Positions 26,101-29,100 of a stretch of DNA of 64,000 nt are shown here, piece by piece. Position numbers: made by a program. The DNA lies in NCBI RefSeq assembly GCF_003334305.1, contig NZ_QOWS01000004.1, one strand, 5' to 3'. Each line of letters starts with the position of its first letter. The first letter of the stretch is position 1. This DNA is from Escherichia coli (lineage in GTDB: Bacteria > Pseudomonadota > Gammaproteobacteria > Enterobacterales > Enterobacteriaceae).

Positions 26101-29100
26101 ATCCCAAGCGATAGTAGATGCAAGACAGTTCTTTAGCGAACACCCGGAATATATATCATCAGCAGAACTGGAGCAAAATCTATATCGCGAATTTGCACAG
26201 GTTACTACAGTTCCAGCTTATAAAGAGATGAGTATGTATCAATTGCTTATCATTTCACAAGATCGTTTAACTCATTAAATAAGGATCTACACGCTTTTTG
26301 CGTGTAGATTCTTATAAATTTCTGACTACGACAGATGTTTAATTTTTTAAATTATCGTCTTTATTCTCGATTTTTGTGTCTTCACCCTCAATGAATTTAT
26401 CTTCTGAAGAGAGCTGTTCATCTGGAACAGGTTGTCCAGCATTCTCCACATCTTCAAGTCACAGCAGAAGACGTAATATTTCATCTATATTTTCGAAGCT
26501 AACATAATCGTAGCGACGATGGGTAGCATAAATTTTTCGTGCTAATTTTTTATCTGTGATAATTGGTATTCCGATTTCCTTTGCATATTTCCTTACGGCT
26601 AAGGCTACCTCATTAGTTTCTCTTACAGAAATCAATGGAATAGGTGAAAGATGTGGCTTAAAGTATATCCCTATTGCAATGTGAGTAGGGTTGGCAATCA
26701 TCAAACGACTATTACTGACATCAGACTTCAATTGCTCAGAAAGAATTTCCTGATTCGCTCTCTGCGTTTAGACTTAATTTCTGGATTTCCTTCTTGCTCC
26801 TTGTATTCTCTTTTAACTTCTTGTTTATCCATTTTCATATCTTTCATAAATAAAAAATATTCAGCGATAAAATCAAAAATTAAGACAATTATCATACTGC
26901 CGAGACAATACAGTATGAGAAGGAATAGCATCTCTCCCCAATCTGATAATAAAGATATGATATCTCCATCAAGAGTTTTAAAAAGCAGTGATTTATGATT
27001 ACTCCAAAATACTTTGATCGCCAATGCAAAAAAACAATATAAAGAATTGCTTTAACAAATTCTTTTACGGTTTTTAAGCCAAATATACGCTTTAAGCCAT
27101 TTACTGGATTCAATGAATCAAACTTAAATTTAACAGCTTCAGTTGCTAATTGCATTTTACTTTGAAACCAGGAGACAAGTATTGTTGTGAACATGCAAAC
27201 CAGCAAAAAAGGAATGTTCGTTTTCAACCAACCAACCCCCATAGCTTTAAAATAGTCCCAAATATCTGGTTTAGCGTTATGATCAAGGATGTATTCAAGA
27301 ATCGACATAATGTGATGCACATCAAAAACATATCCGAGATATAAAGTACCCACAAGCATTATTACAGAGATGGTTAAGTCTCTACTTTTTAGAATTTGCC
27401 CTTTTTTAGAAGCATCCTGGAGTTTCTTTTGTGTTGGCTTTTCAGTTTTATTGGCCATGAAACACTCTATTTCTCAATGTATAGTTGCAATTGTTCTGGG
27501 AAAAAGGATAACGGCATTACTCGTTCAGCCAGTATTGGGGCAAAATAAATAATTAATATTAAAAATGCCAGCGCACTTTTGACAGTCAGTGAAATGGCAA
27601 AAGCATTTAGTTGTGAAGCATAACGTGCCAGCAATCCCAGGACAGCCTCACCGCCCAGCATAACGGCAATCACGGGGCTTGCGTAAACGATAGTATGAGT
27701 CATTATGTTATTAATATATGAGAATAAAGGCTCTAATTTAGGAAAATTAAAATTGCCTGAAGGCCATAAATTATAACTTTGCCAAAGAGTTTCCAGAATA
27801 AAGTTCATTCCACCTTTAGTAAGATAAACCGCAGCAGAGAAAAGGTTAAATAATCTTGCTAATTCCGAGGTATCGACACCTGTAGCCGGATCCAAAGTAC
27901 TACTTAATGTTGCACCGCGTTGGTTATCGATAAAGCTACCTATAGCAAGGAAAATCCAAAACGGGGATGCTAATAAGCATGCAATAAACAGCCCTATGAT
28001 AATTTCTCTGGCAGCGAACAAAGCAATATCGATTTCATTTAAGTTCAATAATTCATAGTGGTAATGCTGAACTAATGCACATGATACCACTATTATTATT
28101 GGGTGACAAACTACTGTTGGTATATTCCCACTGGCGAAAAATGGTAACAAATAGAAAGTTGGTGCCAATCGGCAAAAACCGAGCGCTGTAGCAGCCAGCA
28201 GACTATGCAACTGATAGAGTATCGCCTCCCCCATGCTATCCTCTCGCGAATGCTAAATTCAGCATTTCGATACCAAATGAATATAATTTTTCACCATACC
28301 ACCCGCTCATTAAAAAAAAGCAAATACTTACGCACAATAATTTCACGCCAAATGGCAACGTCTGTTCTTGCAACTGCGTTACCGTTTGAAAAAGCCCTAC
28401 CAATAAACCAACAAATGTCGCAACTGCAATAGGTCCTGCAGACATAACTAAAATCAGATACAGCGCCCTATTCCCCGCAAAAACAATATCGTCCATATTT
28501 TTTCCTCAGGGATTAATGGATAGGTCAAAATATTGTAAAATGAGCCCTTTTGATAACATTGTCCAACCGTCCATCGCGACAAACAAAATTAATTTTATCG
28601 GTGTAGATATGGTTACCGGACTCATCATCATCATACCTAACGTTAACAGAACGCTGGATATAACCAGATCCACTACGACAAAGGGTAAATAGATATAAAA
28701 ACCTATAATAAATGCACTTTTTATCTCACTCAATGCATATGCGGGCAGTAACGAGAAAATTGAAATATTATCATCATCGATTATCTCTTCATTGTCTTCA
28801 GAACTATTCACCTTCTGAATCTTTTCAAAAAAGCTAACCAACTCAGGTTCAGAATATTTTATCAAATATGATTTATAACCACTCATGCCTGTCTCAACAA
28901 AATTAACAACCGATGCTACATTATTGAATGAAAGATTCTCATTCTGACTGTTATTATATATTTCCTTCCCAACCGGCATCATTACGAACATTGACAATAG
29001 CAAAGCAACCCCATTAAGTGTCATATTTGATGGCACTTGCTGAAGTCCCAGCGCGTTTCGGACAATAACAAAAACAATCGAGAATTTAATAAAACATGTC

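Follow-up and report, generated by a model that had tools for sequence, protein, structure and literature searches.

epaS in the decaying ETT2 island of an Escherichia coli lineage is a pseudogene with two frameshifts and a premature stop codon

Introduction

Passages in two reviews (PMC11068852, PMC3977695, citing Ren et al. 2004 J Bacteriol 186:3547) describe the second type III secretion system of Escherichia coli (ETT2) as one that most E. coli carry and that is subject to widespread mutational attrition. In the ETT2 reviews, epaS (ECs3721, 1122 bp) is listed as the spaS homologue of the system (PMC11068852, PMC3977695). Further, an ETT2 isoform with an 8.74 kb deletion at its right end was described (PMC11068852), and in non-O157 enterohaemorrhagic E. 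coli the genes eivJ through eivG were reported to be missing, with the epr and epa genes kept (PMC2323221). Here we describe epaS in a stretch of 64,000 nucleotides of E. coli DNA (NCBI RefSeq assembly GCF_003334305.1, contig NZ_QOWS01000004.1), hereafter the window. Positions are counted from its first nucleotide, and epaS, epaR, epaQ, epaP, epaO, eprH, eprI, eprJ, orgA, orgB and ygeK lie on the minus strand.

The closest described counterpart is EpaS of O157:H7 (ECs3721 in strain Sakai; WP_001284737.1 in strain 644-PT8), which is encoded at the same locus between the same neighbours, with epaR upstream and the etrA-side genes downstream, and has the length that the window copy attains once repaired (1122 nt). 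The amino acid identity of O157 EpaS with the pieces that tblastn aligned in the window was 85-96%, the two being nearly identical over the native-frame stretches, and the NPTH motif is conserved. However, epaS of O157 is an uninterrupted open reading frame (ORF) of 373 codons, whereas the window copy carries two -1 frameshifts and a nonsense codon. Among the more distant relatives, SpaS (PDB 8axk chain K, 342 residues; 3c01, 2vt1), YscU, EscU and FlhB have the NPTH motif and the transmembrane N-terminal half in common with the repaired EpaS. EpaS differs from SpaS by an additional acidic C-terminal tail of ~30 residues, and the window copy differs further in that it cannot be translated as one protein.

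Results

Identity of the epaS locus

The whole epaS pseudogene occupies 26339..27458, as delimited by the annotation of the NCBI Prokaryotic Genome Annotation Pipeline (PGAP) in the record of strain A7, by DNA alignment and by three-frame tblastn. This copy is 1120 nt long, and the intact alleles are 1122 nt long (373 codons plus the stop codon). We put back the two lost bases and the Trp codon and obtained a repaired translation of 373 amino acids, which is a conceptual, ancestral sequence and corresponds to no single present ORF. The repaired EpaS scored 565.6 bits on NCBIfam NF006017 (cut-off 394), in which residues 1-366 were aligned with a profile of 367 positions, and 382.4 bits on TIGR01404 (SctU; cut-off 358). 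Further, its residues 1-341 were aligned with SpaS (8axk chain K; E = 1.2e-105). The alignments with the cleaved SpaS crystal fragments 3c01_E and 2vt1_B began at residue 258, immediately after Asn257, so that the NPTH autocleavage site falls on residues 257-260, encoded at 26681-26692 within the third piece of the gene. The gene lies directly after sctR-sctS-sctT (epaP, epaQ, epaR) on the same strand, as expected for SctU genes.

These results support the identification of the gene as the SctU/SpaS/FlhB-family switch gene of ETT2. The SpaS-type identity had been proposed by an initial annotation made from the sequence alone, and the NF006017 score and the end-to-end alignment with 8axk chain K bear it out. 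NPTH is likewise encoded in the third piece, where that annotation had placed it. A functional member of the family is encoded by one uninterrupted ORF that covers the transmembrane and cytoplasmic domains; here, that ORF is broken by the two -1 frameshifts and the nonsense codon. At this locus, the SctU family is represented by a pseudogene and not by a working member.

Three reading frames and three lesions

The ORF list of the window contains three minus-strand ORFs in three frames at this locus: 26892-27458 (188 aa), 26728-27024 (98 aa) and 26459-26731 (90 aa), here ORF1, ORF2 and ORF3. ORF1 and ORF2 overlap by 133 nt, and ORF2 and ORF3 by 4 nt. The initial annotation had described epaS as split over these frames and had named a frameshift-aware alignment as the check. 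When intact O157 EpaS (373 aa, strain 644-PT8) was aligned with the window by tblastn, no single continuous alignment was obtained; instead, three high-scoring segment pairs (HSPs) in three frames were detected. Frame -3 covered residues 1-151, frame -2 covered residues 122-235 and frame -1 covered residues 236-373, the last with a stop opposite Trp334. The split was thus confirmed by both the ORF list and the tblastn search.

The first segment (27035..27458) keeps the native frame from the ATG to a run of T, and SpaS residues 1 to ~143 were aligned with it. It encodes the native residues through Phe143, after which ORF1 adds 45 out-of-frame residues and ends at a stop at 26892. On its own, ORF1 matched SpaS over residues 1-155 of the latter (8axk chain K, E = 1.4e-30), and it also matched FlhB proteins. 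The second segment (26757..27027) holds native residues ~144 to 235 in the second frame, as indicated by the tblastn alignment in frame -2 and by the three-frame translations. The third (26462..26754), identified by the tblastn alignment in frame -1, holds native residues 237-333, including NPTH, in the third frame. It is followed, in the same frame, by an orphaned 3' tail (26339..26458) of 39 codons (LEDVENAGQ...NLKN) and the original TAA; this tail is 95% identical to the C-terminus of O157 EpaS. As read from these frames, the sole product that could be made from the native start would consist of 143 native and 45 out-of-frame residues, and no switch protein would be made.

To call the lesions, we aligned the DNA with the intact alleles of O157 644-PT8, EcPF15 and C4 and with the epaS pseudogene of O103:H2 strain 12009. 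The first lesion in the direction of transcription is a contraction of a homopolymer from T8 to T7 (27028..27034), which causes a -1 frameshift at codons 142-144. The second is a 1-nt deletion (26755..26756) that causes a -1 frameshift at codons 235/236; GAGCGCCATC has become GAGCG-AATC, with a base lost between 26756 and 26755 and, in addition, a C to A substitution. The third is a nonsense mutation of Trp334 from TGG to TGA (26459..26461), called by DNA alignment and seen in the tblastn alignment as the stop opposite W334. Past this codon, the reading frame runs on through the 39 codons to the original TAA, down to 26339.

The initial annotation had recognized two lesions; both of these frameshifts exist, and the nonsense codon was overlooked. 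Its positions were 6-25 nt away from the true lesions. The first shift had been placed near AAAGTATTTTGG at 27011-27022, but this string is at 27004-27015 and the lesion is the T8 to T7 contraction at 27028-27034. At the site proposed for the second shift (26728-26731), ORF2 just ends and ORF3 begins; the true deletion, at 26756/26755, lies 25 nt upstream. Further, the gene had been ended at 26459, where the premature TGA was taken for the natural stop; the true end at 26339 was missed by 120 nt. Thus, when frameshifts are placed by the ends and starts of ORFs, the error in the position of the mutation amounts to tens of bases, and the natural end of a gene can be confused with a premature stop.

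Distribution of the alleles and order of events

We searched 5426 complete E. coli genomes for the locus and its alleles. The region 26300-27600 was present in 3126 of them, as determined using megablast, and matched 100% in strain A7 (NZ_CP028767.1), which was obtained from orangutan faeces. Over its first 50,000 bases, the window agrees with the A7 record with zero mismatches, and in that record PGAP marks 26339-27458 as an SctU-family pseudogene, "frameshifted; internal stop". Alleles were typed using 45-nt probes, in which each 28-nt seed was forced to span the lesion, and the T7 allele using one exact 79-nt probe. At codons 235/236, the -1 allele GCGCATC was found in 2020 genomes, the variant of the window (GCGAATC) in 105 and the intact allele GCGCCATC in 577. 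The exact T7 allele was present in 107 genomes and the TGA allele in one, strain A7. The second lesion is therefore carried by ~2125 of the 5426 genomes, or ~79% of the 2702 genomes typed at codons 235/236, indicating that most sequenced E. coli that retain epaS have a pseudogene.

Direct inspection showed that the lesions form a nested series. The O157 allele is intact. The epaS pseudogene of O103:H2 12009 has only the -1 deletion at codons 235/236 in common with the window copy and keeps T8 and TGG. In B7A, EC93 and Ceylon31, the genes of which are 1-3 substitutions from that of the window, this deletion is accompanied by the C to A change and by T7, and TGG is kept at codon 334. Strain A7 carries all of these changes and the TGA.

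From this nested sharing we infer the order of the decay. The 1-nt deletion at codons 235/236 would have arisen first, in the ancestor of a very large clade of E. coli. A sub-clade of ~105 sequenced genomes, including enterotoxigenic E. coli B7A and EC93, would then have lost one T from T8, probably through replication slippage, and the C to A change beside the first deletion would have been acquired in the same sub-clade. The change of TGG to TGA at codon 334 would be the latest step, in strain A7 alone. The distribution thus implies that the deletion is old, that the homopolymer contraction is younger and that the nonsense mutation is private to one strain.

The ratio of nonsynonymous to synonymous change (pN/pS) between intact alleles was 0.06-0.09. 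That between the window gene and the O103 gene, both frameshifted, was 0.77, with just 2 synonymous and 6 nonsynonymous differences; this suggests relaxed constraint, although the ratio is weak evidence by itself. We consider that the function of epaS was lost by stepwise neutral decay, through two -1 deletions and a premature stop, within a decaying ETT2 (probability about 0.95). Nothing substantial weighs against this conclusion. Of two minor points, the first is that the TGA is known from one assembly only, in which a base-call error is possible; the second is that seven T in a row could in principle be slippery, so that a small fraction of transcripts or ribosomes could regain the frame there.

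The ETT2 island and its other genes

The genes of the island are arranged in the order yqeH...ygeK, orgA, eprKJIH, etrA, epaSRQPO, a remnant of eivJ, a GH15 gene (pkgA) and tRNA-Gly. The GC content (0.348 in the island, ~0.50 in the flanks), the tRNA-Gly (glyU) locus and the gene order, which resembles that of pathogenicity island 1 of Salmonella (SPI-1), identify the island as ETT2.

The initial annotation had also stated that epaR, epaQ and epaP are intact, and this held. All three genes are full length and scored above their NCBIfam cut-offs: epaR/sctT (27467-28234) scored 320.9 bits (cut-off 163), epaQ/sctS (28236-28496) 140 bits (cut-off 108) and epaP/sctR (28506-29171) 383.9 bits (cut-off 263). 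No indels or stops were detected in them relative to strain EcPF15, and eprK was also free of lesions. The spacer that separates epaP from epaQ is 9 nt long and contains, at 28504, a run of A that is contracted from A7 to A6 relative to EcPF15.

When the window was compared with the near-complete ETT2 of EcPF15 using blastn, the junction of a ~8.73 kb deletion was found at 30228..30235. The HSPs abut at positions 4636 and 13364 of the EcPF15 region with an overlap of 8 nt, and microhomology at the junction is possible. The remnant of eivJ (30108-30227) is fused to sequence that lies immediately downstream of the GH15/pkgA gene. Through the deletion, eivJ was lost in part, and eivI, eivC (ATPase), eivA (export gate), eivE, eivG (secretin) and eivF were lost entirely. 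The complete apparatus set of the intact ETT2 isoform (eivA, eivC, eivG) is therefore absent here, and because the genes for the ATPase, the export gate and the secretin are deleted, the system cannot function, regardless of the condition of epaS.

Further lesions were found on both sides of epaS, and most of the apparatus genes that escaped the deletion are broken by frameshifts or stops. Relative to EcPF15, eprH (PrgH family; 24044-25225) has a +1 at 24774, in a run of T, and a -1 at 24679, in a run of A. These lie 95 nt apart, so that the downstream frame is restored with a stop in between, and PGAP records an 'internal stop'. By the same comparison, eprI has a +1 at 23930 and eprJ a -1 at 23493; orgA/orgB has -1 changes at 22165, 22139 and 21906 and a GAA to TAA stop at 22087. 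The LuxR-type regulator gene ygeK (20612-21244) is stopped by a CAA to TAA change at codon 52 (21091) and has also lost 1 nt from its terminal run of A, and ygeF (16703-17193) is annotated as frameshifted. In epaO (SctQ/SpaO family; 29161-30148), codon 15 is hit by a +1 at 30074 and codon 125 by a change of TGG to TGA (29743-29745); both were called against the intact O157 allele, the EcPF15 copy being itself frameshifted. This copy is flagged as such although the ETT2 of EcPF15 is otherwise near-complete. About half of the in-gene indels of the island, and several intergenic ones, lie in homopolymer runs of A or T; indels in such runs fit replication slippage in AT-rich DNA.

A search of the whole window with Rfam at the gathering thresholds detected OmrA, OmrB and tRNA-Gly only, and nothing in or near epaS; we accordingly rejected a hidden RNA element in this gene. 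The OmrA/OmrB small-RNA genes (RF00079, 96.6 and 86.1 bits) lie in tandem on the minus strand at 2250-2337 and 2453-2534, between aas and galR, where they are expected in the E. coli backbone.

Alternative explanations

The frameshifts and the stop could be sequencing or assembly errors in one genome, the gene being really intact. The first lesion lies in a homopolymer, a typical site of long-read errors, and the TGA was found in only 1 of the 5426 genomes. However, T7 is present in 107 independent complete assemblies and the -1 at codons 235/236 in more than 2100; B7A, EC93 and Ceylon31, which come from different laboratories, have both frameshifts, and the second lesion lies outside any homopolymer. 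This recurrence in many independent genomes rules out sequencing error for both frameshifts. An error is plausible just for the private TGA, and without the TGA the gene is dead all the same, which leaves it highly unlikely that an intact epaS has been misread. The same run of T would also matter if full-length EpaS were restored by programmed recoding or by a phase-variable switch, through transcriptional slippage on U7 or -1 ribosomal frameshifting. Transcriptional slippage is described for type III secretion genes of Shigella such as mxiE and spa13. In epaS, the native frame GUU UUU UUG contains the heptamer U UUU UUG, and slipping by -1 at this point would bring back the native sequence FFALAIK.... 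The shifted arrangement is, however, not conserved: the intact alleles and the O103-type pseudogene have T8 in frame, and relatives have GCGCC. Nor does the second site, GAG CGA AUC AGG AAA, contain a slippery heptamer or a homopolymer. The U run is followed by no stable fold, and hence by no stimulatory structure: the minimum free energy was -12.8 kcal/mol, with z = -0.25 relative to shuffled sequences. Further, a product that regained its frame would still meet the nonsense codon, and its ATPase, export-gate and secretin partners are deleted. We therefore rejected programmed recoding or slippage, which we regard as extremely improbable.

Some function could also persist in the pieces of epaS or in its intact neighbours. 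SctU proteins normally undergo cleavage at NPTH, with the two parts staying associated, and ORF3 holds the whole region of the cytoplasmic C-terminal domain that aligned with the SpaS and YscU crystal fragments, so that ORF3 might act as a free autocleavage domain in a split gene. Against this, the start codon of both ORF2 and ORF3 is TTG and is not preceded by a Shine-Dalgarno-like sequence close enough to be used, the borders of the fragments are set by mutations and not by the limits of domains, and the pN/pS of ~0.77 between the window and O103 genes points to relaxed constraint; a functional split gene was rejected on the starts and the constraint. As for the neighbours, epaP, epaQ and epaR might have been kept for a residual role, and the post-hoc probability that these three genes escape all 11 lesions is 0.038. 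The initial annotation had likewise called the decay patchy rather than uniform. To examine this, we distributed 11 lesions randomly over ten apparatus genes with a total length of 6588 nt. In this unbiased test, the lesion-free gene length was at least that observed in 18% of the random trials (P = 0.18), which is not significant. The annotation thus described the pattern correctly, but the pattern is no more than random neutral scatter gives, and we rejected non-random patchy decay. In O157 (644-PT8), epaS, epaO, eprI and eprJ are intact, epaR has an internal stop and eprH has a frameshift and a stop. This is roughly the reverse of the pattern in the window strain, and the decay accordingly looks random and specific to each lineage. 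That the pieces work as a split gene, or that epaP, epaQ and epaR serve a residual role, is accordingly exceedingly unlikely. We give little more credence to a selected residual role of an SctRST-type core as the reason why epaP, epaQ, epaR and eprK are intact, or to a phase-variable T7/T8 switch in lineages with a complete ETT2, both being very doubtful. If such a core role were real, it might consist, for example, of an interplay with the flagellar export gate or of an effect on the cell envelope.

Discussion

The stepwise neutral decay of epaS proposed here is a small and clean example of how a pseudogene is degraded, as its nested lesions would be of very different ages (~2125, ~107 and 1 of the 5426 genomes). 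The three lesions could serve as lineage markers. The ETT2 of the window lineage cannot assemble a secretion apparatus.

The ~8.73 kb deletion in the window matches the 8.74 kb isoform described previously (PMC11068852). Compared with the known attrition of ETT2, the present case shows no difference in kind; what is specific to it is the exact list of lesions of this lineage and the TGA that is private to A7. It is one more instance of that attrition, in a gene already flagged as a pseudogene in RefSeq, and is in this sense already known.
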